Source: Bacteroidota bacterium
Lineage (GTDB): Bacteria > Bacteroidota > Ignavibacteria > UBA10030 > CAVZMI01
Length of the DNA: 64,000 nucleotides
Assembly (NCBI GenBank): GCA_050011775.1
Contig: JBEKIL010000003.1
Location: 154,224-218,223 of the forward strand
Direction of reading: 5' to 3'
Part shown: one piece after another, positions 26,848 through 64,000 of the stretch
Position numbering within the stretch: position 1 is the first letter of the stretch
Layout: each line of letters begins with the position of its first letter
Program-made: the position numbers and the translations under genes
The notes under the pieces: model-generated
Databases searched by the model: none
The model's input: the letters and a program-made list of their open reading frames with translations, nothing else
Told to the model about the DNA's origin: nothing

Positions 26848-27024
26848 AAGGAAAAAGGAAATCCTTCGACTCCCCCTCGACTCTCCGCCTCCGGCGGATC
26901 GCTCGGGGTCGCTCAGGACGAGAATTTAAAAGTAAAAAAGGTAAAATGATTCCAGCAGGCTCGGTAAAAATTTTATCCTTTTTAATTCTCGTCCCGAGCC
27001 CGTCGAGGGATTTACTTTTTCCTT
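26848..27024. repeat. long imperfect palindrome (MITE-like or structured leader) in the dnaK-clpB intergenic region
   Basis: Outer arms AAGGAAAAAGGAAATCCTTCGAC (26848-26870) and GTCGAGGGATTTACTTTTTCCTT (27002-27024) are reverse complements at 21/23 positions. Inner arms GCTCAGGACGAGAATTTAA and TTAATTCTCGTCCCGAGC also pair. The loop is ~50 nt with an extra GC hairpin CCGCC-tcc-GGCGG. Confidence 0.55.
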
Positions 27025-27073: not shown

Positions 27074-28387
27074 ATGAATTTTAATAAATTTACAATTAAA
27101 GCGCAGGAAGCTGTTCAAAATGCTCAGGAGAATGCAACCAGTTATGGCAGTCAGTCTATAGAGCCGGAGCATCTCCTTGCTGCGCTTATCCAGGATTCGG
27201 CCGGGATTACTGTTCCGATTCTACAGAAGGTCGGAGCCAATGTGAATTATATCAAAATAAAGATCAATGAAGCGATCGAGAAACTTCCCAAGATCTCGGG
27301 TGCAGAGCTTGGGAACCAGTTTGTCTCACAATCGCTCGGGCAGGTATTCGAAACGGCACTCAAAGAAGCGAACCAGCTTAAAGATGAATATGTCAGTACC
27401 GAACATCTGCTTCTTGGACTTATTGAAGAAAAGCAAAATAAAGGAGCAAAACTCCTGATTGATCAGGGAGTCAAAAAAGAAGATATCTATAAAGTCCTTA
27501 AAGAAATCCGCGGCAGTCAGCGTGTGACAGATCAAAATGCTGAAGATAAATATCAGGCATTAGAGAAATTCGGACGCGATCTGAACGATCTTGCCCGACG
27601 CGGCAAGCTCGACCCGGTCATCGGACGTGATGATGAAATCCGAAGGGTCCTTCAGGTTCTTTCACGGCGTACAAAAAATAACCCGGTCCTAATCGGTGAA
27701 CCCGGCGTTGGAAAAACTGCAATCGCCGAAGGAATTGCTCAGAGAATTGTCAACGGCGATGTGCCGGAGTCTTTACGAACCAAGCGGATTGTTGCGCTCG
27801 ATATGGGAACGCTTGTCGCAGGGACGAGCTTTCGTGGACAATTTGAAGAGCGATTGAAAGCCGTGTTGAACGAGGTTATTCAATCCAATGGCGAAATCAT
27901 TTTGTTCATTGATGAACTTCATACGCTCGTAGGTGCCGGGGCCGCACAGGGAGCTGTCGATGCCGCGAATATGCTAAAACCCGCCCTGGCACGCGGTGAT
28001 CTCCGGGCTATAGGCGCCACAACGATCGATGAATATCGGAAGCATATTGAAAAAGATGCGGCTCTGGAACGCCGGTTCCAGCCGGTTCTTGTCGATGAGC
28101 CGACAGTCGAGGATACGATTTCGATCCTGCGGGGTCTAAAGGAACGGTATGAAATCCACCACGGCGTGCGGATTACCGACGGTGCGATTGTCGCGGCGGC
28201 ACAACTGAGCCATCGGTATATCTCGGATCGATTCCTTCCCGATAAAGCGATAGACCTGATCGATGAAGCCGCCTCAAAACTGCGCATTGAAATCGATTCA
28301 ATGCCGGAAGAACTCGATGAAATTGAGAGAAAAATTAAACAATTGGAAATAGAACGTGAAGCGTTGAAACGCGAATTACAGGCATAA
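27074..28387 (+). CDS. clpB: ClpB disaggregase, N-terminal part (N-domain + NBD1 + first half of M-domain)
   Basis: Clp N repeats, Walker [14 protein letters not shown], Walker B ILFIDELH. Ends inside the coiled-coil M-domain (...[14 protein letters not shown]). Confidence 0.9.
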
Positions 28388-28403: not shown

Positions 28404-29762
28404 ATGACTGAATTTACGCAAGAAAAAATGCAGGAAACGACAAAAAAGCGACTCGATGAGATTGAAAAAGAAATTGCCGATCTCAACGAAGTCCGCACTC
28501 AGCTGAAAACACACTGGCAGAATGAGAAGAATCTCATTCAATCTATCCGGACAATGAAATCCGAGATCGAGAAAGCGCGAAATGAGGCTGAAAAGAAAGA
28601 ACGCGAAGGCGATCTAGCAAAGGTCGCCGAACTGCGCTATGGAGTGATTGCTAATCTCGAGAAAAAACTGAAAGCTGCTACCCAGGAGCTCGCAGGAGTT
28701 CAGAAAAATCGGAAAATGTTGAAGGAAGAAGTCGATGCCGAGGACGTTGCAGAGATCGTGGCAAAATGGACCGGTATCCCGGTCAGCCGCATGCTCGAAA
28801 GCGAGCGGTCGAAATTACTGCATCTTGAAGAACGGATACACGAGCGGTTGGTCGATCAGGTCGAGGCAGTCCGGGCGGTGAGCGACGCTGTGCGCCGTGC
28901 ACGAGCGGGATTGCAGGACGAGCGAAGACCGATCGGTTCATTTATTTTCCTTGGCTCGACCGGAGTCGGAAAGACCGAACTCGCCCGCGCACTCGCCGAG
29001 TCGCTCTTCAACGATGAAAATGCAATGGTGCGCATTGATATGAGCGAGTATATGGAGAAATTCTCCGTATCACGTCTCATCGGTGCGCCGCCCGGTTATG
29101 TCGGCTACGAGGAAGGCGGACAGCTTACCGAGTCAGTCCGACGGAAACCATATTCCGTTGTGCTGCTTGATGAAATCGAGAAAGCGCATCCGGAAGTATT
29201 CAACGTGCTTCTTCAAGTACTTGATGAAGGCCGGTTGACCGACAGCAAAGGGCGAACGGTTAATTTCCGGAATACTATCATCATCATGACCTCGAACCTC
29301 GGATCGAATATCATCATGGAGTGGACGCAGAACATGACCGATGTAAACCGCAATGAGGTCATGGAGGCTGTCAGGGTTAAACTATTCGACCTGCTTAAGC
29401 AGACAATTCGTCCGGAGTTCCTTAATCGTGTCGATGAAATCATCATGTTCAAAACCCTTACACGCGACGATATAGTTCAGATTGTCGATTTACAGCTCCG
29501 TCATGTGCAGGTATTGGTGAAAGCAAAGAATATCACGCTCAATTTCACCGATTCGGCAAAAACGTGGCTGGCAAAGGCGGGATACGATTTGCAGTTTGGC
29601 GCCCGTCCGCTTAAACGGATAATTCAAAAACATGTTGTGAATAAATTATCTGAAAAAATTCTTGCCGGAGAAATTGCCGAAGGGAATATGATCTCTGTCG
29701 ACGTCGGCACGGATGGATCGTTTCGATTTATTCCTGTCGTCAAAGTTAAGGATGTTCAATAA
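28404..29762 (+). CDS. clpB: ClpB disaggregase, C-terminal part (second half of M-domain + NBD2 + C-terminal domain)
   Basis: Continues the ClpB alignment exactly where the upstream ORF stops (...[10 protein letters not shown]... ; NBD2 Walker [16 protein letters not shown], Walker [12 protein letters not shown], sensor/arginine region). It is in the +1 frame relative to the first part and is preceded by GAGGA-n3-ATG. Confidence 0.9.
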
Positions 29763-29848: not shown

Positions 29849-30523
29849 TTACAATAGAACAGAAAACCCGACAAAGAGTCTGATCATTGAATTTTTATTA
29901 TTGACTGAATATAAGATACAGCCGGTATAATTTTCTGTATAGGTTTGATATCGATAATTCAGCTCTATCTTAAGCGCGACACTTTGAGCGATCAGAAGTT
30001 TTACTCCGGCACCTGCATTGAATGTTTTCACATCGAATTTATCAGAAACAAAAGAGGAAAATGGAAGATTTCCCGTAATAAAGCCGGCATTACCAAGCCC
30101 AAACCCTCCCCGAATGAAAGGAGCCACGATAGAGTGTTCTAGCGGATATGTGAACGAAAGATTTAATAGGACCGATTCTCCCGGCTGGCCTCCCTCATAT
30201 GCAAAGAGGTTCACTTCCGGTTCAAGCGACAGCCAATCGATAAAATAGTATCCGGCTGTAAGAGAGATGGTAGCGAAATTTTCTTTTGATTCATTACCAT
30301 AATTCCAGGAATTCATGGAGGTGGTAGTTTTCGTCGTATATTGTCCGAGCGCTCCGGACATCGTGAGTTCCCAGTCTCCCTGCATAAAAGGCCCTTTTTT
30401 CACCGAGATGTCGATATCTCCGATCCTGGCTTTTGCGCTCTTCGAAGAAATCTCGATATCCTGTGCATGGACGAGAGAGATCATACTTAATGAAATGATA
30501 GTGTGAATGATGAAATTTTTCAT
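29849..30523 (-). CDS. small outer-membrane beta-barrel protein (OmpW/porin-like)
   Basis: Signal peptide (MKNFIIHTIISLSMISLVHAQ). Alternating hydrophobic beta-strand pattern over ~200 aa. Aromatic-rich C-terminus. Confidence 0.6.
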   Translation of the reverse strand: MKNFIIHTIISLSMISLVHAQDIEISSKSAKARIGDIDISVKKGPFMQGDWELTMSGALGQYTTKTTTSMNSWNYGNESKENFATISLTAGYYFIDWLSLEPEVNLFAYEGGQPGESVLLNLSFTYPLEHSIVAPFIRGGFGLGNAGFITGNLPFSSFVSDKFDVKTFNAGAGVKLLIAQSVALKIELNYRYQTYTENYTGCILYSVNNKNSMIRLFVGFSVLL

Positions 30524-30540
30524 GGTACTCTCCCTGTTGT

Positions 30541-30675
30541 TAGAGTGAGTGAACGGTTGATTCTATATGGCGTTCATCCGTCCCACAGAGTCCTCCGAGT
30601 ATTTTGAGTCAAAAAACCTCTACGAAGCGACGCTATCATCTTTCCATAAGTTACCGGATTTTCTCTATCGAGTTA
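30541..30675 (-). pseudogene. frameshifted fragment of the 3' end of a homocysteine S-methyltransferase gene (direct repeat of 38926..39066)
   Basis: ~85% nucleotide identity to the last ~135 bp of the intact gene at 38915..39916. Reverse translation gives ENPVTYGKMIASLRRGF, matching ENPDRFGEMMASLHKDF of the intact copy, and then loses frame. Confidence 0.5.
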
Positions 30676-30855
30676 TTCTTTATCGCTGCAGCTAAGAGAT
30701 ATTTTACGTTTCAAAAATAATGGAGCACGGCTGCGTCCGCCGGCTGGGGATTCTTACCCCGGAAGTTTAACTATCGTTGAGGATAGAATCTCCTTGCCTT
30801 TGGATAAAGCAAGGAGATGATTTATCGAAGCAAGACAAACGTATTGTCTTAACTT

Positions 30856-32112
30856 TTAGTTCGACACGAAAGTCGTCGCACTCGATGAATCAAGAGTAAC
30901 GGTAAAACTACCGTTTGATAAAGTAATATCACTTCCCTGTACACAATTCTTACTACTTGATGTGACATAGGGCGTAAACGTCGTGACTGTCCCGTTCTGG
31001 ATCGTAAATGTTTGATCGATTGAAGATGAATTTCGGTTCAAAACGACGATAACCACCTTGGAGCCGTTTTTATATGCAGTTACATCAACATTTGTCTGAG
31101 GGCTGGCTGTGGCACTTACCCTATAGTATCCCGGACGAACGAATCTGGCGTATTGCGACATGACATAACCTCGTTTGGTTACATTTCCTTTAGTACCTCC
31201 TCTTTCACCATCATCGATCGGTCCGTAGAAGCGAACAATATACCACCAGATATACGCATTCATACTCGCATTCATACAATCATTAATTTGTTTGCCTGTG
31301 GCAAGAACATGAGACCAAGTAGTAATAGTATCAAGATATTCGGTCATCCATAAATCTTTCCCTTTGCTCATAGCTAGGGGATAACTCATTAGCCCTCCTC
31401 CGTACAGATGACCACCGACAATGGAAAGGTTCGCAGCGGCAACAGGATCATTCAATATCGCATCTGTAATGGTGTGGCTGAAATTCATTGACTCATCTGC
31501 GATGATATTGATTCCGATAGAGGGCACATTGTTCTTCACAAAGTTAACCATTTGTGTTGCATTCCAATAGCAGGACTCATAGGTGACCGTTACATCGGGT
31601 TCGTTTTGAACGGATACAGCATACAACAGAACACCGTTGCTCGACATATAATCGCCAAACGCTTTCAGATGCGCCGCATAGGCTGCATAAGAATCAGTCT
31701 TGAGTTCGCCTCCAACGATATTATTGTTGGTCTTCATCGAAGCAGGTGGAGTCCAGGGAGAAGCTATGATTGTCACTCCCTGAGCATGTGCTAACTGAGC
31801 AGTAGCAACCTGAATGGCGAACTGAGATGTGTCAGGCGGTACGCGCAGGCGAAGTATGGTGAAACCTAATTGTCCTGCTCCGGTACCAAAAGCCGTGTTG
31901 ATTTGATCAACAGTCATATCAGGACGCCAGGGAAGTATGTTCGCAGCACCAAAGCCCCTTATCACCTGGTGGGTATTAGCTAAATCAACGGAGGCAGTCC
32001 CCGATTCATCTGAAGGTCCGTTAATTGTGTCTTTCTTTGAACAACCTGCCGCCATCAAAGCAAATAATAGTATAAGGCTTAATAAATTGTTTCTTATCAT
32101 ATTAAGGCACAT
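30856..32112 (-). CDS. secreted glycoside hydrolase family 30 (glucuronoxylanase XynC-like)
   Basis: Signal peptide/lipobox (LMAAGCSK). GH30 TIM-barrel signatures (IRGFGAANI...FTILRLRV...YAVSVQNEPD...WMTEY) and C-terminal beta-sandwich. Confidence 0.78.
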   Translation of the reverse strand: MCLNMIRNNLLSLILLFALMAAGCSKKDTINGPSDESGTASVDLANTHQVIRGFGAANILPWRPDMTVDQINTAFGTGAGQLGFTILRLRVPPDTSQFAIQVATAQLAHAQGVTIIASPWTPPASMKTNNNIVGGELKTDSYAAYAAHLKAFGDYMSSNGVLLYAVSVQNEPDVTVTYESCYWNATQMVNFVKNNVPSIGINIIADESMNFSHTITDAILNDPVAAANLSIVGGHLYGGGLMSYPLAMSKGKDLWMTEYLDTITTWSHVLATGKQINDCMNASMNAYIWWYIVRFYGPIDDGERGGTKGNVTKRGYVMSQYARFVRPGYYRVSATASPQTNVDVTAYKNGSKVVIVVLNRNSSSIDQTFTIQNGTVTTFTPYVTSSSKNCVQGSDITLSNGSFTVTLDSSSATTFVSN

Positions 32113-32499
32113 GGCATTCCCCTTTCTTTTAATTTAATTTTTCAAAATACCTGGTCATCTTCTCTTTAGATAAATCTGGACTGCACCTATGCTCGTTATG
32201 CAAAATGTAAACATTTTCACCGTGCTTTTCAATTAGGCGTTCATTCCGTTAGCTTGTTGAACGTTTTATGTGGAATCACGTGTTATTTGTGGGGAGCGGC
32301 TGGCTAAGTGGCAAATATTTCATGTCCCTATATGACTTGTGCTTCTCCAGTCTGATCATTGACTCTTACTATAAAGCATCCGACGGCCACAGAATCTTCT
32401 ACACGGAAGTCTAACTACCGTAGAGGACAGAATCTCCTTGCCTTTGGATAAAGCAAGGAGATGATTTATCGAAACAACACAAACGTATTGTCTTAACTT

Positions 32500-33735
32500 T
32501 TAGTTCAACACGAAAGTCGTCACACTAGATGAATCAAGAGTAACGGTAAAACTACCGTTTGGTACGGCAATATCACTTCCCTGTGCACAATTCTTAGTAC
32601 TTGATGTGATATAGGGCGTAAACGTCATATATGGTGGCCCGTTCCAGATCGTAAATGTTTGATCGGTTGAAGATGAATTTCTGTTTAAAGCAACGATGAC
32701 CACCTTGGAGCCTTTTTTATATGCAGTGACATCGACATTTGTCTGAGGGCTGGCTGTAGCACTTACCCTATAGAATCCCGGACGAACGAATTTAGCATAT
32801 TGAGACATTACATAACCTCGTTTGGTGACGTTACTGTTGTCGTCGATCAGGCCGTAAAACCTTCTGATATACCACCAGACATAAGCGTTCATATCCGCAT
32901 TCATACAATCATTAATTTCTTTGGCTGTTCCGAGAACAGCAGTCCATGTTCTGGCAGTATCACAATGTTCGGTCATCCACACCTCTTTACCTTTGCTGAT
33001 GGCCAGAGGATAACTTGTGAGCCCTCCTCCGTAAATGTGTCCGCCGATGATGGATACGTTAGCGGCGGCGACAGGATCGTTGAGTATAGGGTCGGAAAAT
33101 GCATGATCGAAATTTCCCACTTCGGGTACGATGATTCTGGTGCCGATTGTCTGCACATTATTTTTGACAAACTTGAGCAATTGTGATGGGGTCCAAACGC
33201 AGGTTTCATATGTTGCCGAGTAATCTGGTTCGTTCTGAACCGATACGGCATATAAAGGAACGCCGTTGTTTGACATATAATCGGCGAAAGATTTTAAATG
33301 GGCCGCATAAGCGGCATAATAATTAGTATCGAGAGCGCCGCCTGCGATATTATTGTTTGTTTTCATTGAAGCCGGAGGTGTCCAGGGTGATGCAAATATT
33401 ATTGCTCCGAGCGATTTTGCCAGCAGTGCAGTGGGAACTTCCAGATTAAATTCCATCGAATCGTAAGAGACGCGAATGCGCAGTATGGTCAGACCAATTT
33501 GACCGGTCCCGGTGCCAAAAGCCTTCTGTACTTGATCAGAAGTCAAATCGGGAATCCACCCAGGCATGTTTACACCGCCAAAACCCCTGATAAGCTGTTG
33601 AGGGACGTTTAAATCAATAGTCGCTACGCCCGGTATTTCTGATGGTCCGGTGGGAGATGGGCAACAACCTGCCGCCATCAAAGTAAATACTAATATAAGG
33701 CTTAATAAATTGTTTCTTATCATATTAAGACACAT
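32500..33735 (-). CDS. secreted glycoside hydrolase family 30 (glucuronoxylanase XynC-like), paralog
   Basis: Same GH30 motifs as 30856..32112, ~75-80% aa identity by eye. Confidence 0.78.
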   Translation of the reverse strand: MCLNMIRNNLLSLILVFTLMAAGCCPSPTGPSEIPGVATIDLNVPQQLIRGFGGVNMPGWIPDLTSDQVQKAFGTGTGQIGLTILRIRVSYDSMEFNLEVPTALLAKSLGAIIFASPWTPPASMKTNNNIAGGALDTNYYAAYAAHLKSFADYMSNNGVPLYAVSVQNEPDYSATYETCVWTPSQLLKFVKNNVQTIGTRIIVPEVGNFDHAFSDPILNDPVAAANVSIIGGHIYGGGLTSYPLAISKGKEVWMTEHCDTARTWTAVLGTAKEINDCMNADMNAYVWWYIRRFYGLIDDNSNVTKRGYVMSQYAKFVRPGFYRVSATASPQTNVDVTAYKKGSKVVIVALNRNSSSTDQTFTIWNGPPYMTFTPYITSSTKNCAQGSDIAVPNGSFTVTLDSSSVTTFVLN

Positions 33736-33947
33736 GACTTTACCCTTTCATTTGATTTATTTTTTCAAAATACCTGATCATCTGCTCTTCGGATAAATTT
33801 GTAATACATCTGCATTCGCCATGTCAAATGTACACAATTACTGTGTGCTTTTCAACGTGGCGCTTATTTGGTTTAAACTTGTTGAACGTTTTGTGTGAAA
33901 TTACGTATTATTTGCGGGGAGCGGCGAGTTAGTCAGCTAACGAGCTT

Positions 33948-34409
33948 TTAGATTGCTATAACATGCCAACCACTTTTCTGAAGTTCTGCAAGCATCTCAC
34001 CGGTATACATAACAGTTATACCAAGCTGTGTAAGTCTGTCAGAGACACCATAAAGATCTGCACAAGCCTTACATGCATATAATTCAACACCTACTTGCTT
34101 AAGATCTTTTAATTTCTCTTGCAGCACGGTATCCTCGGCTAACAATTTTGACGATGGACCCCAAACAAGTAATCTAACATTGTCCATCCATGAATTCTTC
34201 TTGCAGTAATAGGCATACATAAACACCATTTTGAGAGCAACTTCTCGATCCCCACTTGTCCATAGAATTAATTGCTGTTGTTTGATCGTTGAAATTGCTT
34301 TTATTGAATCATTTCCTGAGGACGATTCCACTTTCATTAAATTCTGACAAAGAAGCAAACCGCCAAGTATGAGATTTGCTATGATGAAAAATATTGTAAA
34401 CCTTTTCAT
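33948..34409 (-). CDS. DsrE/DsrF-like family protein (secreted)
   Basis: Signal peptide. C-terminal ...LLVWGPSSKLLAEDTVLQEKLKDLKQVGVELYACKACADLYGV...ITVMYTGEMLAELQKSGWHVIAI resembles the DsrE/DsrF/TusD fold, with conserved Cys in ACKAC. Confidence 0.4.
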   Translation of the reverse strand: MKRFTIFFIIANLILGGLLLCQNLMKVESSSGNDSIKAISTIKQQQLILWTSGDREVALKMVFMYAYYCKKNSWMDNVRLLVWGPSSKLLAEDTVLQEKLKDLKQVGVELYACKACADLYGVSDRLTQLGITVMYTGEMLAELQKSGWHVIAI

Positions 34410-34474
34410 GTTGTTCCTTTCGTTTATTTATATAGTTGTTAGTGGATTAACGGATAACCGCTCCGCCTACGTAA

Positions 34475-34657
34475 ATAACACTCTGTCAGGCAGGTAATAA
34501 CATAAAATGTACCACTGCCAACGAGCTTGGACGTATTGTCTATGCTATGCTCAAAAACCACACTGAATATCAAGACCTTGGCGAACTCTACTACGAACAA
34601 CACTACTTCCACACACTCCTAATCATGAGTTAATTAGGAGGCGGCTATAATTCTTTA
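34475..34657 (+). mobile_element. remnant: ~53-codon C-terminal fragment resembling an IS110-family transposase, plus downstream palindrome
   Basis: Open frame ...ANELGRIVYAMLKNHTEYQDLGELYYEQHYFHTLLIMS* resembles the conserved C-terminal tail of IS110-family transposases (..ARKLARIIWAMLK..TEY..). Followed by CCTAAT-catgagtta-ATTAGG. A second, more degraded copy lies at 37855..37968. Confidence 0.3.
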
Positions 34658-35097
34658 AGAAACTCGTCTGGAGTCAGACCAAAATAGGATGCTTTTTCTA
34701 CAATTACTGTAAAAAATAATTCATCGTGTCCTCGACCATCAAATGTTGGACCATATTTAGCAAATAGTGCTTTGCCTTCTTCTGTCGGCTGATGTACCAT
34801 CTTAATTTGATATTCGTGTAACATTTCATGAACAAGTTCAGTTTGATGAATATACCAGCCAAGCTTGCTCATTGGATGACAATGACCTTGAATTTGGTTC
34901 TCAAAATCTTCAAGATTGCCATCGGCTATGAATATATATAGACAATCTTCGGAAGGGCGATAAAATGTAGTTGACATGCTAAACTCAATTTTAAGTGTGG
35001 CCTTCTTCAAATTGGCATCTGTGGGATACCAATCTTTCCAGAGACGATCATATTCACTTCTCAAAATTGATACAATTTCTGATTTAGTAATAGACAT
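34645..35097 (-). CDS. small HExxHxxQ zincin-like protein (DUF4157/SprT-like metallopeptidase motif), unknown function
   Basis: 150-aa ORF containing ELVHEMLHEYQ (HExxHxxQ). Low-GC cassette. Translationally coupled to the upstream gene (4-bp spacing after its stop). Confidence 0.55.
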   Translation of the reverse strand: MSITKSEIVSILRSEYDRLWKDWYPTDANLKKATLKIEFSMSTTFYRPSEDCLYIFIADGNLEDFENQIQGHCHPMSKLGWYIHQTELVHEMLHEYQIKMVHQPTEEGKALFAKYGPTFDGRGHDELFFTVIVEKASYFGLTPDEFLKEL

Positions 35098-35123
35098 ATT
35101 GATAGCCGCCTAAGGGACCGGAG

Positions 35124-35591
35124 TTAGACCGCACCGATCAACTTTGCCATTTGACTGCGAATTATACTCGATGTGAAGAATATATTGACGGAATAAATCT
35201 GGAACCTTCTAATTTCGTAGAGTATGATGTTTCCTTCTTTCGTATCCCAAATATATTTATTTGAAAACAACGGGTGTTCGCTGTATTTGCCAATCTCGCT
35301 GTTAACGAAGGCTAGAGTTGTCTGCAAAACCATCTTGGCGAGGGTCTTATTCCAGTCATCAAACTGTAAACTGATCTTATATATCTGTCCGTTAGTAGAT
35401 GCAATCATCGTTGAATCCCAGTGGGTGGCAGCAAATTGCACATTGATTCCGTTGAAAAACCTTTCGTTCTCTAAGACTCGTTTCATTCCAGCAAACTCAG
35501 CGGACAGATAATCCTCCTCTGAAAATTCCTTTAATCCTTCAGCCGTGTTGATTTGCTGCGTCAAATAATAGGGGCCAACCGTCAGTATCAT
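35124..35591 (-). CDS. hypothetical protein (155 aa), low-GC cassette
   Basis: Coding-like ORF with no recognisable motif. Its 3' end overlaps the repeated motif CCGCCTAAGGGACCGGAGTTAGACCGCA. Confidence 0.5.
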   Translation of the reverse strand: MILTVGPYYLTQQINTAEGLKEFSEEDYLSAEFAGMKRVLENERFFNGINVQFAATHWDSTMIASTNGQIYKISLQFDDWNKTLAKMVLQTTLAFVNSEIGKYSEHPLFSNKYIWDTKEGNIILYEIRRFQIYSVNIFFTSSIIRSQMAKLIGAV

Positions 35592-35837
35592 AAAATTGCT
35601 TCCGTCGAATGTGCGCCGTGCGGCCTACAGACGGTGATTAGACTGCTGCACTGAAAACTAGCAAATTGTACTATCCGTGCCAAGCCGATAAAATTGAGCC
35701 TCGTCGAAGACGGGTTCATTCGCTGTACTCTCAATTCTTAACTACACCTATACTCGTCATTAATTTACCGCTAAGATCATTGCATCATCTTGATGCGCTG
35801 GTTAGGGGCGGTGTATATTATACCAAAATTATTTTTT

Positions 35838-36029
35838 CTATTTGCTAGAATTTGAATCTCTATCTTGTAAAGATTCCAAAAGTTTGATTACTTCTTGAGT
35901 ACGATGGGCAGGATCATTGTTATTAGCTTTTTTCGAAATACCAAGAAGTCGTTCTGAGGCTTCATTGAGTACTTGCTCACGCCTCGAAGCTTGGCAATCT
36001 GAGTTACTGTTTTTTGGTTCGTTTTTCAT
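35838..36029 (-). CDS. small hydrophilic protein (63 aa from MKNEPKN...), uncertain
   Basis: Short ORF overlapping the 3' end of the 337-aa membrane protein gene. Charged, low complexity. Could be non-coding. Confidence 0.22.
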   Translation of the reverse strand: MKNEPKNSNSDCQASRREQVLNEASERLLGISKKANNNDPAHRTQEVIKLLESLQDRDSNSSK

Positions 36030-37017
36030 TTTTATTTCCTTGAATATTAAGGATATAAAGAACATAAATAAGTTGTGACATTATAAAGAGTTCGTCAATA
36101 CGAAGTTCAGTAAAAACACTTTCTTTACCTGTATAGTCAACAGTGATCGCACCGATATTTGGCACGTCGCTTTGGCTACATGGAACGGGTACTGCAATAA
36201 AGGATTTATACCTACTACTCTTTCGTTTCAAGTAAGGAGCATTGAATTTTTTATCCTTTGGATAAATAAGAGGCCGGCCAGTGAGGATTGCTTGGCCTAC
36301 GAAACTATTATTCACATCAAAACCGCGCATACTATGAGAAGTCCAATCTCTATTGTTTATAGCAATCATATATTCTAATCTATCACCTTTTTGTTCAAAG
36401 AATGCCATGCGAAATTGTTGAAGCTCAGGGCTATCACCAAATGAATACTGTAGAAGAAGCCTTCCAGCAGCATCAACGCTGTCCTTGAAATGTTGCACAC
36501 TATGCTGATGACATCGGATCTCGGATACTAAGGTCTTATGCATGAGACTTAGCACATTAATATGTTTTTCTAAATCTCGAATTCTATTTGCTGCTACCAA
36601 ATCAGGTTGTGCAGTTACATAACGATAAAGGCCGTTACCTAAGATTGTAAAGGCACGACGGGCGGCTTTGCCAAAGGCTTCTGGATCATTAATACGCTTA
36701 TTTCTTAGGAAGTTTGCTGTGAACACAATAATAGTACTTAAAAATAGAGATGAGATAAACACTATAAGAGCAATGTTAAGACCATACAATATTGGCGTAA
36801 AAAGTTTTGCTCCATCAAGAAACTGCTTAACTGCAGCAACCTTGTCACCAGTGAATGATGTAAGACTACCACTCACAGTTGTAATGATTCCACCAATGGT
36901 AAATTTAGATTTCCAATCGGAAAGGGCAAGTGTGAAGCCAAAAATTAAGCCGCATAAAATAGTTGCTACTGCAATTAGATGATTTGGATGAATTGCAGAT
37001 AGAATACTATTATCCAT
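36004..37017 (-). CDS. membrane protein: 3 predicted N-terminal TM helices + cytoplasmic GAF-like domain
   Basis: Hydrophobic segments LIAVATILCGLIFGFTLAL / IGGIITTVSGSL / ILYGLNIALIVFISSLFLSTIIVFTANFL. C-terminal ~170 aa with GAF-like pattern (FVGQAILTGRPLIYPKD ... KSFIAVPVPCSQSDVPNIGAITVDY ... ELFIMSQLI). AAAGGA RBS. Confidence 0.6.
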   Translation of the reverse strand: MDNSILSAIHPNHLIAVATILCGLIFGFTLALSDWKSKFTIGGIITTVSGSLTSFTGDKVAAVKQFLDGAKLFTPILYGLNIALIVFISSLFLSTIIVFTANFLRNKRINDPEAFGKAARRAFTILGNGLYRYVTAQPDLVAANRIRDLEKHINVLSLMHKTLVSEIRCHQHSVQHFKDSVDAAGRLLLQYSFGDSPELQQFRMAFFEQKGDRLEYMIAINNRDWTSHSMRGFDVNNSFVGQAILTGRPLIYPKDKKFNAPYLKRKSSRYKSFIAVPVPCSQSDVPNIGAITVDYTGKESVFTELRIDELFIMSQLIYVLYILNIQGNKNEKRTKKQ

Positions 37018-37043
37018 AACGTTTTATTCCTTTACCGCGCCGC

Positions 37044-37727
37044 CTAACGAACCGGAGTTAAGCTACGGCAACCTGCCTGTCTACCCCGACATGCTTTTAA
37101 TCGTGGAGCGGCGGATTGTTCAGTACTGCAAAGTGACCTAGATGTCTTCTCCAGTTTCTTGTTGATGGATTGGAGACAGGTCGTGATCTTCTTTTGCGCT
37201 GCATCTTGATGATCAATAACTTTATGATACATGTTTTGTCTCAACGCTGGATCCATAACTGCTTGAGGGAAGATTCTGACCTGAATGTATTTATCTAGAA
37301 TAAATTGGTAATTATTGATTGTTGTATACGTTGAGGAGAGAACGCCCAACAGATCGGGATCGTTTAGCCATTGCAACTCTCCGCCGTCAGAAAAAGCCTT
37401 CCAGGATTCTACCCGCACAAGGTATAGTTTGTTATCGAGACTATCACTGAACTGACCGATAGAATCATAATTTTCTTTTAATTCTGCTTGAAGAACTGTG
37501 AGTATCTTCCTTACTCTTTCGGCAGATTCTTTTTTCTTCTCCTTTTCGTTTCTGGATCGAACAATGCGATCTATCCAAAGGGCGATTGGCAGGCCGATTC
37601 CGATACCAACAATCGTTGCAAATAGATTTGCAAGAAAATTTGAATAGAAAGGCTGATCCAAAATGTGGGATTCCTTTGCGCTGCTTAATATAGTTATTAT
37701 CTGGCCACCATCCATTTCGTAACACAA
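37044..37727 (-). CDS. membrane-anchored protein (single TM + coiled-coil region), unknown function
   Basis: TM LFATIVGIGIGLPIALWI, then a Lys/Glu-rich helix and a ~150-aa soluble region. 3' end overlaps repeat motif CCGCCTAACGAACCGGAGTTAAGCTACGGCA. True start may be an internal Met. Confidence 0.5.
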   Translation of the reverse strand: MCYEMDGGQIITILSSAKESHILDQPFYSNFLANLFATIVGIGIGLPIALWIDRIVRSRNEKEKKKESAERVRKILTVLQAELKENYDSIGQFSDSLDNKLYLVRVESWKAFSDGGELQWLNDPDLLGVLSSTYTTINNYQFILDKYIQVRIFPQAVMDPALRQNMYHKVIDHQDAAQKKITTCLQSINKKLEKTSRSLCSTEQSAAPRLKACRGRQAGCRSLTPVR

Positions 37728-37854
37728 CTAGTGGCGGCCCATTCCCGCCCCTTTATCACTCTTCGTTTATACTAAAAGGGGAACTTTAGCTACAAATATA
37801 CAGCAGCTAAACCACCAGAGCAATAGCAGAAAATTGCAAAATCGGAGCTGCTTG

Positions 37855-37968
37855 AAAACGACCGGACTTTCAAACGACTCAAGCATAAAGCAGCTGATCT
37901 CGGGTTCCAACTTGTTCCTCTGGCAACTCCCACTCACTCCTACTCATGAGTTACCTAGGAGGAGGTTT
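37855..37968 (+). mobile_element. second, degraded copy of the IS110-like C-terminal fragment plus TAACTCATGAGTTA palindrome
   Basis: ...TFKRLKHKAADLGFQLVPLATPTHSYS* aligns with copy 1 (...DLGELYYEQHYFHTLLIMS*). Downstream is the perfect 14-bp palindrome TAACTCATGAGTTA and CCTAGGAGGAGG. Confidence 0.25.
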
Positions 37969-38448
37969 TTACGGTTTATATTTGTCGACGAGAGAATCTT
38001 TAAACGCAACAAGCGAATCTAATCCCATAGGCCAACAAGATTTATCACATCGGTAAACACCGGCAATATTCAATGTGTCAGTAATATTATCTTCTTTGAT
38101 AACAATTATCAGGGCTTGCGCACCTACACACAAAGAGGATCCAGTGGGATCGGGTGCTCCGACCAACTTATTATTATTGATGAGTGAAATCATATGATTA
38201 TATTCTTGACTTTGTATCTTGGCAGACCAAGAACTTATCGTAACGCCATTTTGAGATGATACAAAGATTATGTCTTCCTGATCCACAGTAACTAAAGTTG
38301 ATACAGGTTGAGGAACAACAGCACCTTTGTCAAGAAAACTAACGTATGAGGTTGATTTAACCGGCTCAGTAGGCTCAGACTTTTTGCAGCTTCCTAAAAC
38401 AACAACCAAAGATAAAAAGATTGTAATTGAAAATATTCTGTTATACAT
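37969..38448 (-). CDS. lipoprotein, unknown function
   Basis: Signal peptide + lipobox (LVVVLGSC). 159 aa, no motif. Confidence 0.55.
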   Translation of the reverse strand: MYNRIFSITIFLSLVVVLGSCKKSEPTEPVKSTSYVSFLDKGAVVPQPVSTLVTVDQEDIIFVSSQNGVTISSWSAKIQSQEYNHMISLINNNKLVGAPDPTGSSLCVGAQALIIVIKEDNITDTLNIAGVYRCDKSCWPMGLDSLVAFKDSLVDKYKP

Positions 38449-38914
38449 ACAAAACTCCTTACTTACTGGAGTAAAAACCGCCTAACCTATGATTAGGTCG
38501 ACTCAGTCGACCTTAGATTCTGAAATACTGTGGAGTATTTAACGCTCCATTCTTAAAAAGCCGATGCGTTTTCCGGATGAACCTGGAGGAAAAAGTATAA
38601 CGCTTTTATCGGCAAGTTTACCGTATGATAACAATTATTAACGAAATGTCAAATATCCTTTGCCGATAAAATAAAAATCCTCTGGGACTCTTTGAGTCAT
38701 ATGGGTCAATACCTTTAAATAATATATCCGGTTGAAGAAAAATGAATGCAGAATGAATGGCCACGACCTTCAGGTCGTGGATTTTCAAATCTAAAAAGTC
38801 TCGGCGGGCTTTAGCCCTATATCAATTTAATGTGGGGTTAAAACCCCTCATTTTTCTCCTCTTATTTCCCACGAGCTAAAGCTCGTGGCAATAGAGTTTT
38901 TCAGACGTCTCGAA

Positions 38915-39916
38915 TCATTTGTTTTGTATAGTGAGCGAACGAACAATCGACTCTATGTGCCGCTCATCCGTGCCACAGCATCCTCCGAGTATTTTGAGTG
39001 AAAAATCTTTATGAAGCGATGCCATCATTTCGCCAAATCTGTCCGGATTTTCCACGTCGAGCTCTTCCCGGCCGTCGAGTTCTTCCGGACTTCTGAGCGA
39101 TGTGTTCGCCTGAAGTCCAAGGATTCTACATCGCACTTCTCGATCTTGATCTTGACCTCGACCTATTATCGCTTTCCTAAATATTTCCGGATGAACACAA
39201 TTGATCATATATCCTGTAGGCTTAGGTGATACTGTTGTATCGATATTGTTAATCGCATCCGGGAGAAGCATACCGTCAAGGAGTCTACAATTTGCACGAA
39301 TGACAAAGCTCAGTATATACGGACATCCCGAATCGGCCATTGCCTGTGCCATTCCAAGTGCTTCGCTGAAAGCCGGAAGTGTCGACCCTAAAAGAAAATC
39401 AACGCCGGACGACGCAAGTGCACGAACCTGCTCCCGGTGAAAAAAACGTGCTGTCCCGGAAGGTAACGCCTCTTCGGGTTTATACGCATCACCATAACAG
39501 CCCATGAGTCCGCCGATAAATATTTTTTTGGCATATTCACCATAACCGGCTCGTATTTCTGCAAGGAAATCGTAACAATCCTTATTTACATCATGGGCAC
39601 GCCCACCGACGTTCTTTGAACTCTGGTGGGCAGGTAACCCTGCCCGCGAGATTCGTTCGGGATTTGCACGCCAGGTAGGAGTGAGAATGATCATCGGAAG
39701 ATTTCTGCGATATGCACAGTCGATGTATTGACGATAGATTGCTTCAAGATATTTCTTTCCTTCATTATATAATAGAGCGGAATTGAGCAGGTGAGGGTTA
39801 AGGGAAATTCCGGGTGTTCTTCGCAGCCGTTCGATGACGGCTCCCTCGGCGATGATCACCGGTTCTTGCTCAATACAAAGAAGAAATGTTGACATGTGAC
39901 TGGTGTGGAAATACAA
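38915..39916 (-). CDS. homocysteine S-methyltransferase-family protein (zinc-dependent Hcy-binding domain)
   Basis: Hcy-binding domain signatures including ...MINCVHP... and GGCCGTDERHI zinc-ligand motifs. Its last ~135 bp are duplicated at 30541-30675. Confidence 0.82.
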   Translation of the reverse strand: MYFHTSHMSTFLLCIEQEPVIIAEGAVIERLRRTPGISLNPHLLNSALLYNEGKKYLEAIYRQYIDCAYRRNLPMIILTPTWRANPERISRAGLPAHQSSKNVGGRAHDVNKDCYDFLAEIRAGYGEYAKKIFIGGLMGCYGDAYKPEEALPSGTARFFHREQVRALASSGVDFLLGSTLPAFSEALGMAQAMADSGCPYILSFVIRANCRLLDGMLLPDAINNIDTTVSPKPTGYMINCVHPEIFRKAIIGRGQDQDREVRCRILGLQANTSLRSPEELDGREELDVENPDRFGEMMASLHKDFSLKILGGCCGTDERHIESIVRSLTIQNK

Positions 39917-62578: not shown

Positions 62579-64000
62579 ATGAAAGCAACACGTTTCGTAA
62601 TCGCATTATCTGTTGAGCTGTTTCTTCTTTATACGGGGCCGGTCCTTCTCTATGCCCAACTGAGCAAACATATCTCAAATTATACCATCACTGCAAGGCT
62701 CGATGTTACAAAAAGATCCGTGGAGGGAGACGAAATTATAACATGGCTGAACGATTCGCCTGATGAGGTGAATGATATTTATCTCCATTTGTATCTGAAT
62801 GCATATCGCGACAAGAAGAGCACGTTTGCAGTGGAAGATAATACGTATATCACTCCTGAAAATGCGGGAGGGATTGATATTCATTCACTCAAAACAATCG
62901 ATGGGATCGATCTTCTTCAGAATTCATCGTTTGTCCATCCGGACGATGATAATGCCGATGATAAGACTGTACTTTGCGTTCCGCTTCCCCGATCTCTAAA
63001 ACCGTCCGAGTCGATTCAATTACACGTGACGTTTTCAACCAGACTTCCGCTCGCTCTCGGTCGGAGTAACGCTGCGGAGGGATGCGAATTCTATTTCGTG
63101 GCGCAATGGTTTCCGAAAATGGCGGTATACCAGCAGACCCGCCTAAGTCTGGAAGATGTCGGCGGGCAAACCCGCGGCAAGGTGTACGAGTGGAATGCCC
63201 ACCAATTTCATAAAAATACGGAGTTCTTTGCCGATTTTGGTGAATATTGGGTGACTCTAACCGTACCTCGTGATTATGTCGTTGGTGCGACAGGAGTAAG
63301 GGAATCGTTGAAAGAAAATACCGATGGTACTGTCACTGTCGCCTATCATCAGGCTGATGTTCATGATTTTGCATGGACTGCTTCACCGCGTTTTCTTGAA
63401 TTCCACAAGACATTCACTCATCCGACTCTTCCATCGACGGAAATTATTTTGCTCCTACAACCGGAGCATCACGGCCTCCGTGACCGCTATCTCACCGCCG
63501 TCACCAATGCACTGAAATATTTTGGTGAATGGTACGGTGAATATCCATACAAGACAATTACCATAATCGATCCTCCGCGTACAAGCAATGCTGGAGCTAT
63601 GGAATACCCGACTCTCATCACAGGCCGGGCACGCTGGATCTCGCCGGCAGCGATACTGGACCCGGAGGATGTGACAGTCCATGAATTTGGTCATCAGTAC
63701 TGGTACGGAATGGTTGCCAGCAATGAATTTGAAGATCCATGGCTGGATGAGGGATTCACCTCCTATTCGGAAATGCGGATTATGCAAAAGGTTTATGGGT
63801 ACAATATAGGTTCCTTCCGGATTGCCGGAGGTATACCTCTGTACGGTGTCCAGCTGCTGACGCTTGATGGGTTCCCGCTCATTGCAGTGATAGATAAGGT
63901 GCGCGTCGACTATCTCTATTATGGACGAATCATGTTTTTACGAAATATGCGTAACGATCCAATCGCAAAATGGGGATTCAAACAGTACGACCGCGAGACT
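62579..64000 (+). CDS. M1-family (aminopeptidase N-like) zinc metallopeptidase, 3'-truncated at window edge
   Basis: Signal peptide. Gluzincin HEFGHQYWYG...(18 aa)...WLDEGFTSY motif. The ORF runs off the window end, so it is not in the stop-delimited ORF track. Confidence 0.72.
   Translation, partial: MKATRFVIALSVELFLLYTGPVLLYAQLSKHISNYTITARLDVTKRSVEGDEIITWLNDSPDEVNDIYLHLYLNAYRDKKSTFAVEDNTYITPENAGGIDIHSLKTIDGIDLLQNSSFVHPDDDNADDKTVLCVPLPRSLKPSESIQLHVTFSTRLPLALGRSNAAEGCEFYFVAQWFPKMAVYQQTRLSLEDVGGQTRGKVYEWNAHQFHKNTEFFADFGEYWVTLTVPRDYVVGATGVRESLKENTDGTVTVAYHQADVHDFAWTASPRFLEFHKTFTHPTLPSTEIILLLQPEHHGLRDRYLTAVTNALKYFGEWYGEYPYKTITIIDPPRTSNAGAMEYPTLITGRARWISPAAILDPEDVTVHEFGHQYWYGMVASNEFEDPWLDEGFTSYSEMRIMQKVYGYNIGSFRIAGGIPLYGVQLLTLDGFPLIAVIDKVRVDYLYYGRIMFLRNMRNDPIAKWGFKQYDRET

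Follow-up and report, generated by a model that had tools for sequence, protein, structure and literature searches.

A pair of diverged direct repeats at the 3' end of a homocysteine S-methyltransferase (HMT) gene raises the question of whether the ~8.4 kb of DNA between them arrived as a single mobile element or was gathered piece by piece. The locus lies in a 64,000-nt stretch (hereafter the window) of contig JBEKIL010000003.1 from a Bacteroidota bacterium of the class Ignavibacteria (assembly GCA_050011775.1, positions 154,224 to 218,223), and a first reading of it, referred to here as the original prediction, had taken the repeats as the two junctions of a site-specific insertion. The analysis supported the left copy as the mark left by an entry of DNA into the final ~45 HMT codons, with the gene remaining intact, and the interior was found to be a mosaic of six integron-type cassettes, all of them replaced in a 94-97% identical genome, and a lineage-specific pair of GH30 genes. 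The features of the locus are listed in Table 1.

The repeat pair and the relic of the HMT 3' end

The two repeat copies were found where they had been predicted, at 30543-30678 (left) and 38933-39067 (right), and the repeat search resolved them into two ungapped halves with 81% (30543-30615 and 38933-39005) and 72% identity (30612-30678 and 39001-39067). The identity of ~85% first given for them was too high, the measured value being 74.8% over 131 aligned columns and 77% over 105 nt in blastn. Their local alignment score of 105, against a maximum of 29 among 2000 shuffles, was well beyond chance. The longest exact run common to both copies was ~19 nt (ACTCAAAATACTCGGAGGA, minus strand), and this run corresponds to the most diverged stretch of the relic in L017, one of the related loci described below.

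Translation, a 333-aa open reading frame (ORF) and the Pfam family S-methyl_trans confirmed that the right copy is the coding 3' end of an intact gene, and the protein was identical to the public database protein P0001, whose start is at 39895. The left copy is a displaced, decaying HMT 3' end. It is translated as LDRENPVTYGKMIASLRRGF, is frameshifted, as had been noticed, by a 1-nt insertion (an extra T) in the T run at ~30611-30616 and continues as LKILGGLCGTDERHIESTVHSL to a stop codon; its 45 codons end at 30542-30540, 16 nt upstream of the start codon (30523) of a gene for a beta-barrel outer membrane protein (OMP). A tblastn search with the full-length HMT against the whole window produced one match only, residues 276-321 at 30681-30543 (next E=0.28), so the relic is not part of a longer pseudogene, and a longer paralogous pseudogene, the alternative raised with the original prediction, was rejected.

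Table 1. Coordinates of the features of the HMT-OMP locus in the window and of related elements in other loci
Feature	Position	Strand	Evidence and remarks
HMT, intact	38915..39916	(-)	Pfam PF02574 S-methyl_trans 3e-34; 333-aa ORF
Right repeat copy, functional last ~45 codons of HMT	38933..39067	(-)	Translation
Hairpin-rich stretch of ~258 bp, HMT stop to promoter	38657..38914	(.)	Absent from L001
Predicted outward sigma-70-like promoter, TTGACA-16-TG-TATCAT, into the array	38625..38652	(-)	11/12, best match of the region
Conserved leader of ~140 nt, attI-like region	38486..38624	(-)	Ends with hairpin GGTCGACTGAGTCGACC (38512-38496) and CCTAA-N7-TTAGG
Leader core, window	38515-38624	(-)	
Leader core, L001	11106-11187		
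Leader core, L013	5582-5645		
Leader core, L014	1564-1623		
Leader core, L015	6860-6945		
Putative cassette A, 159-aa lipoprotein-like ORF (37969-38448)	37728..38485	(-)	Start TTAGGCGGTTTTTAC; 3' box GTAAAAACC..CCTA..AAC; own start/end pairing ranked 1st of 18; ORF without Pfam or PHROG match
Putative cassette B, 227-aa ORF	37048..37727	(-)	Stop codon inside GTTAGGC; 3' site ~22 nt, GCTTAAC-N8-GTTAGGC; pairing weak (rank 9), boundary tentative
Putative cassette C, 337-aa ORF and small ORF	35628..37047	(-)	Start TTAGGCGGCGCGG; 3' box CCGCCCCTAAC; pairing rank 5
Putative cassette D, 155-aa ORF	35114..35627	(-)	Start TAGGCCGCACGG; 3' box GGTGCGGTCTAAC; ~22-nt site; pairing rank 1
Putative cassette E, 150-aa HExxH protein	34451..35113	(-)	Start TTAGGCGGCTAT; 3' box ATAGCCGCCT..TAA (ATAGCCGCC..); pairing rank 1
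Putative cassette F, DsrE-like 153-aa ORF	33887..34450	(-)	Pfam DsrE 2e-7; start GTTAATCCACTAAC; 3' box GTTAGCTGACTAAC; site ~62 nt; pairing rank 3
Tandem GH30 (XynC-like) xylanase genes (32500-33735 and 30856-32112)	30707..33886	(-)	Repeat search, Pfam
Left repeat copy, displaced and frameshifted relic of the original HMT 3' end	30540..30678	(-)	Repeats, translation, tblastn
OMP beta-barrel gene, ancestral downstream neighbour of HMT	29849..30523	(-)	Pfam OMP_b-brl; HMT and OMP adjacent in L026
Repeat family GCGACTACCGCC...GGCGGTAGTCGCACCCTTTWNGGGTGCG, L014	2240-2300, 4300-4470, 6150-6190		
Repeat family GCGACTACCGCC...GGCGGTAGTCGCACCCTTTWNGGGTGCG, L013	6660-6750		

State of the HMT-OMP gap in related genomes

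When genomes and metagenomes were scanned with HMT, L001 was the one close relative, and the other loci found had 39-67% identity and different neighbours; the remaining closer relatives came from a protein search and contig look-ups. The order asparaginase, HMT, variable DNA, OMP and clpB was kept in all loci but L026, and the flanks of the window array were housekeeping genes (dnaK, clpB, asparaginase and rsmB).

L001, an Ignavibacteriota metagenome-assembled genome with an HMT protein of 86% identity, shared both the repeats, here ~10 kb apart, and the two GH30 genes; the cut start of its relic was present at the equivalent position. Although its DNA was 94-97% identical in HMT, the leader and GH30, it shared none of the six small genes of the window. 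Small variable genes also followed HMT in L013 (HMT 69% identical; contig stopping short of OMP), in L014 (66%; ~3.6 kb between HMT and OMP) and in L016 (72%), and a contig known from its gene table (P0003, 70%) had ~1 kb with one gene. L014 contained ~45-bp relics of its own HMT end ahead of each of two OMP paralogs (p<5e-4); the short relic of L016 was not significant alone (p=0.2) and was left out of the relic count. In L017 (62%) the HMT stop codon was followed by a 15-nt hairpin, ~33 nt and then a significant ~150-bp relic directly ahead of OMP, with no cargo, and this relic had the 5' boundary of the window relic and derived residues in common with it (LDR/LYR, PVT and HS). Across the relatives, the DNA between the copies spans ~50 bp to ~10 kb.

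The outgroup L026 (HMT 58% identical) had HMT and OMP separated by 96 bp, with no relic detectable in this gap (p=0.4-0.96), and is the virgin site. The single-copy empty site for which the original prediction had proposed a search does exist, in a distant outgroup and in no close relative, and among close relatives the island was not found to be present or absent as a unit.

Age of the duplication

The window relic was 74.8% identical to the 3' end of its own gene and 74.8% identical to that of L014, the two live ends being 82% identical to each other. With the relic equidistant from its own gene and that of L014, the duplication must date back at least to the divergence of these lineages. 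The 8.4 kb cannot be a unit that arrived with it. What stood of the original prediction was the scar of DNA entry at the HMT end; the bracketed DNA as one inserted element did not stand, since L017, L014 and L001 carry the copies around other DNA. The same organisation in relatives, with more diverged copies, had been named as evidence that would overturn the prediction, and this was found in part, the relatives sharing the organisation.

The 3' end of the live gene differed from the rest of it. Between lineages, the last 45 codons of HMT had a greater synonymous identity than the first 265-280, with 82% vs 47% for the window against L016 (~17 codons) and 67% vs 43% in a second comparison, the codon numbers being small; this hints at DNA-level constraint or a separate ancestry of the live 3' end.

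Direct repeats formed by the duplicated 3' end of a target gene that is still intact are also seen with e14 and phage 21 in icd of E. coli, where the incoming DNA supplies a diverged replacement 3' end (icdC pseudogene), and more generally with islands that insert at the end of a gene and bring a substitute for it. As at icd, the target gene here is intact and the original 3' end survives at the far junction in the form of a short pseudogene. Unlike at icd, the window locus has no integrase beside a junction and no phage genes, its cargo is not a unit, and the event is old, being common to L017, L014 and the window/L001 lineage.

Putative integron-type cassettes between the copies

All six small ORFs between the promoter and the GH30 genes lie on the minus strand, have a GC content of 35-40% against 45-50% in the flanks, and matched no Pfam family except for the DsrE-like ORF F. 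The motif GTTAGGCGGC and its variants preceded most small ORFs in the window, L001, L013 and L014. The motif TTAGGCGG occurred four times in the whole window, three of these in the 5-kb array and all three on the coding strand. The fourth match, at 63139, was considered as a second array and rejected, as it lies within a coding region. Units ended with a GCCGCC..TAAC box in which the bases past the shared core were complementary to the start of the same unit, as in L001 units ab (start GTTAGAACGCA, own 3' box TGCGTTCTAAC) and g (start TTAGGCGGCAATT, own 3' box AATTGCCGCC..). When every start was aligned with every end among 18 units delimited by eye, the own end ranked first in 10 of the 18, and none of 20000 permutations reached the observed sum (p<5e-5). 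Integron cassettes have this form once their circles have been opened at G|TT. Reconstructed circular sites folded with a closing stem, that of L001_g having 12 bp in 77 nt (z -3.8/-4.8), and one site had a TAT bulge.

Homology between arrays broke exactly at G|TTAG, the position of the integron G|TT crossover, and the 128-aa cassette of L013 and L014 started at CC G|(A/T)(T/C)AGGCGGA. This cassette and a glyoxalase-like one recurred at ~90% identity in L013, L014 and L016 beside different neighbours. The array has the imperfect inverted repeats with AAC...GTT cores of attC-type sites (3' boxes, GTTAGGCGGC-type starts and start/end complementarity), a single orientation under a common predicted promoter (38652-38625) and six cassette boundaries, with at least 24 kb free of recombinase genes to each side. 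The neighbour of its first G|TT site is HMT, and the IntI gene that a complete integron would have beside attI was not found in the 64 kb. There was no tRNA gene in the 64 kb. Judged from their sequences, the small genes behave as integron-type cassettes, and the locus, which works like a sedentary integron array, qualifies as a cluster of attC sites lacking an integron-integrase (CALIN).

Integrase-less arrays have been proposed to originate by cassette insertion at secondary sites. The locus resembles such a case in an array growing at a chromosomal site without an adjacent intI, and differs from it in the 135 bp of target duplicated here and in the conserved promoter and leader before the first G|TT. 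CALINs are a defined class of arrays without integron-integrase, and complete integrons have already been reported in Ignavibacteriae (PMC9024848). Like CALINs and sedentary chromosomal integrons (IntegronFinder: Cury 2016; Neron 2022, PMC9024848), the array holds low-GC, same-strand genes of mostly unknown function, imperfect inverted repeats ending in GTTAGGC-type cores, G|TT exchange and a common upstream promoter, with no nearby integrase. Unlike in CALINs, the sites measure ~22 to ~240 nt and the complementary boxes are 10-15 nt long (GCCGCC..TAAC / GTTAGGCGGC) with indels; unlike in CALINs or integrons, the attI-like leader and the promoter adjoin a metabolic gene and not intI; and unlike in a degraded, inert CALIN, every cassette differs between genomes with 94-97% identical flanks.

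Two of the sites, ending cassettes B and D, are mini-sites of ~22 nt on the minus strand (37039-37064 and 35105-35126), near-identical in sequence (GCTTAAC-TCCGGTTC-GTTAGGC and GTCTAAC-TCCGGTCC-CTTAGGC) and well below the length of known attC sites; either the collapse of a site or a double-stranded core-type site could explain them. The ORF of cassette E (34645-35097, minus strand) has very few homologs (L022-L024), and those traced to longer contigs lie on a conjugative element, beside BilD/JAB genes and a type IV secretion cluster. Tracing this cassette into other genomes for a complete integron led to homologs beside the secretion and Bil genes and to none in arrays, and the identical protein was located on one 4.5-kb contig alone, which matched the window at 100% identity. 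A further repeat family (GCGACTACCGCC...GGCGGTAGTCGCACCCTTTWNGGGTGCG) has several copies in or beside the arrays of L013 and L014.

Promoter, leader and hairpin-rich insert

The predicted promoter was invariant in the window, L001, L013 and L014 and would be analogous to the Pc promoter of integrons. The leaders of the window, L001 and L014 aligned through ...GGTCGACTGAGTCGACCTAATCATAG G|TTAG (CATAG G|TTAG) and were unrelated thereafter, which would place the crossover between G38486 and T38485. A leader core of ~65 nt (CATMCGGAMAACGCAYCGGYTTTTTTAGAATGGRGCGTGAGATGMTCCACARTATTTCA) was conserved in five lineages whose synonymous sites are saturated. Rfam gave no match at gathering score in the window and a single sub-threshold chance match in the segment, and consensus folding of the conserved leader revealed no covariation, so that a structured RNA was unsupported; the core may be a protein-binding (attI-like) region.

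Between HMT and the promoter, homology of the window with L001 jumped from 38931 to 38652. The hairpin-rich insert at 38657-38914 contains the hairpins CCACGAGCTTTAGCTCGTGG, CCACGACCTGAAGGTCGTGG and GGGGTTTTAACCCC, at one of which the contig of an independent Logan assembly of the same organism (start of L027) breaks.

The GH30 pair and other features

The duplicated GH30 unit measures ~1.63 kb, a 48-nt element upstream and a terminator hairpin being part of it. The pair was common to the window and L001 at 97% identity and was not found in the available sequence of L013-L017, several of these contigs being short or truncated. As cassettes the GH30 genes found no support, as they had no start/end pairing of their own and L001 homology began 15 nt past the proposed G|TT.

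Outside the array, clpB was present as two ORFs in the window (27074-28387 and 28404-29762, plus strand), split within the middle coiled-coil domain by a gap of 16 nt with a ribosome-binding-site-like AAGGA..GAGGA, the second ORF starting with MTEF... The clpB of L014 (7627-9981), ~80% identical in its DNA, shows the split at the corresponding point but with another stop codon, so this is a real two-gene ClpB and no assembly error. A palindromic element of ~65 nt (CCTTCGACTCCCCCTCGACTC...GCTCGGGGTCGCTCAGGAC) is found in the dnaK-clpB intergenic region of the window (26860-26922) and, in L001 (10771-10860), in frame inside the HMT coding region, where it adds ~21 residues; HMT of L014 and L017 also has extra residues at that position. 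The insert recalls the in-frame palindromic elements of Rickettsia.

Proposed history of the locus

The history considered somewhat better than an even bet is that one old event within the last 45 codons of HMT left a live and a displaced copy, that DNA accreted later, and that cassettes were exchanged at G|TT by a recombinase encoded elsewhere or whole arrays were swapped through their flanks. In the ancestor of this clade of uncultured Ignavibacteriota-like bacteria, OMP would have stood directly after HMT. DNA would then have entered ~45 codons before the HMT stop codon, a second copy of those codons being carried in or created, so that HMT remained whole while its original end was displaced downstream, where it would abut the OMP ribosome-binding site and decay. 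The gap between the copies would have served as a long-lived landing pad, filled here, in order, by the hairpin-rich insert, the promoter, the attI-like leader up to G|TTAGGC, the six low-GC cassettes and the duplicated GH30 unit. Single cassettes would be gained and lost by site-specific recombination at G|TT, because of which each cassette would open with the complement of its own 3' box. As there is no integrase nearby, this recombination would act in trans, through an integrase encoded elsewhere, or be replaced by whole-array swaps by homologous recombination through the flanks. An element that brought its own replacement 3' end, as e14 does at icd, may have founded the locus, or else a tandem duplication of small size.

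Several observations weigh against this history. Relic-to-relic identity was 62%, against 36-44% at four-fold sites of HMT, and this better preservation of the relics, which does not suit a simple neutral fossil, could reflect constraint, gene conversion or repeated independent events in place of one old event. L017, whose two copies lie nearly side by side, is explained by a small tandem duplication as readily as by an emptied insertion. In keeping with what had first been reported, Pfam scanning of the cassette and large ORFs of the 64 kb yielded housekeeping or unknown proteins, with no Phage_integrase match and no tyrosine or other recombinase; the proposed search for integrase fragments likewise gave nothing, neither by Pfam on six-frame pieces of the intergenic DNA nor by PHROGs on the cassette ORFs. 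A strict scan for inverted 7-mers (RYYYAAC/GTTRRRY) returned counts equal to shuffle expectation; the start/end alignment test was used in its place because the real boxes contain indels. The site lengths fall outside the usual attC range (about 55-140 nt), and the cassette sites are known from core boxes and pairing, with L boxes and extrahelical bases not demonstrated. The boundaries were set by eye, and B, L001 f, the glyoxalase cassette and the GH30 unit were without a clean G|TT or own-end pairing.

Alternative explanations

A small local tandem duplication of about the last 140 bp of HMT with junction filler, with no foreign element entering, the spare copy of which became a safe place for cassettes and other DNA to accumulate, is a distinctly less probable account, though one to be reckoned with. 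It would suit L017, where intact end, hairpin, ~33 nt and relic follow one another without cargo, and the lack of an integrase in the 64 kb, and HMT carries short internal direct repeats (EELDG/EELDV) close to the relic boundary. The hairpin after the intact stop codon is not repeated after the relic, however, hence there is no clean tandem repeat; the L017 hairpin is moreover the one that precedes the G|TT site in the window, L001 and L014, so that L017 may be an emptied array, and the low synonymous divergence of the intact 3' end hints at a separate history or DNA-level constraint.

An ordinary variable hotspot, in which hairpins resembling repetitive extragenic palindromes (REP) or miniature inverted-repeat transposable elements and homologous recombination through the conserved flanks shuffled accessory genes and the GTTAGGC motifs are incidental, is rather improbable. 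The many unrelated hairpin repeats, the unenriched 7-mers, the unclean cassette boundaries, the homologs of ORF E in conjugative-element and not integron contexts and, again, the missing integrase would all agree with it, but cassette-specific complementarity of starts with their own ends, reached by no permutation, is unexpected from REP elements. Breakpoints exactly at G|TTAG, uniform orientation behind a single upstream promoter and the same cassettes beside different neighbours argue against it as well.

That a tyrosine or serine recombinase put a single ~8.4-kb island into the HMT 3' end, the repeats being attL/attR and the integrase lost since, is very unlikely. A duplicated 3' end with an intact target gene is the classic footprint of such islands, and the interior is low in GC and the virgin site exists in L026; yet the relics stand beside ~50 bp (L017), ~3.6 kb (L014) or ~10 kb (L001) of different DNA, the window relic is equally diverged from its own gene and that of L014, neither an integrase nor a fragment of one was found in the 64 kb, and the GH30 genes and the cassettes differ in distribution. 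Hardly credible is a left copy that is the last remnant of a second, paralogous and otherwise deleted HMT gene, which a frameshifted fragment ~75% identical to the live gene might suggest, for the window holds no other HMT-like fragment, the relic stop codon precedes the OMP start by 16 nt, at exactly the position that the one HMT gene of the outgroup occupies, relics of two lineages have the same 5' boundary, and a full-length second HMT upstream of OMP was present in 0 of 7 loci.

Significance of the locus

The scar and the array both follow known principles. For island prediction, the locus is a caution that diverged repeats of a target gene without an integrase may be an old scar around DNA acquired piecemeal. 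It also provides, in a phylum that has received little study, a chromosomal cassette array with clear limits and with virgin, near-empty and filled states (~1 to 10 kb), and this series can be used for asking whether integrase-less arrays remain active. The array region carries polysaccharide-degrading GH30 xylanases as lineage-specific cargo, and its unusual traits are the long complementary boxes, the very short and very long sites, the promoter and leader beside a metabolic gene and the complete turnover between near-identical flanks. It is tentatively suggested, as a possibility well short of even, that an array in a fossil scar with its own promoter and attI-like leader is still actively serviced in trans, in which case the conserved HMT 3' end and leader would be a docking site for the recombinase. 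If that is true, such CALINs would be working platforms for accessory genes and not degraded integrons.

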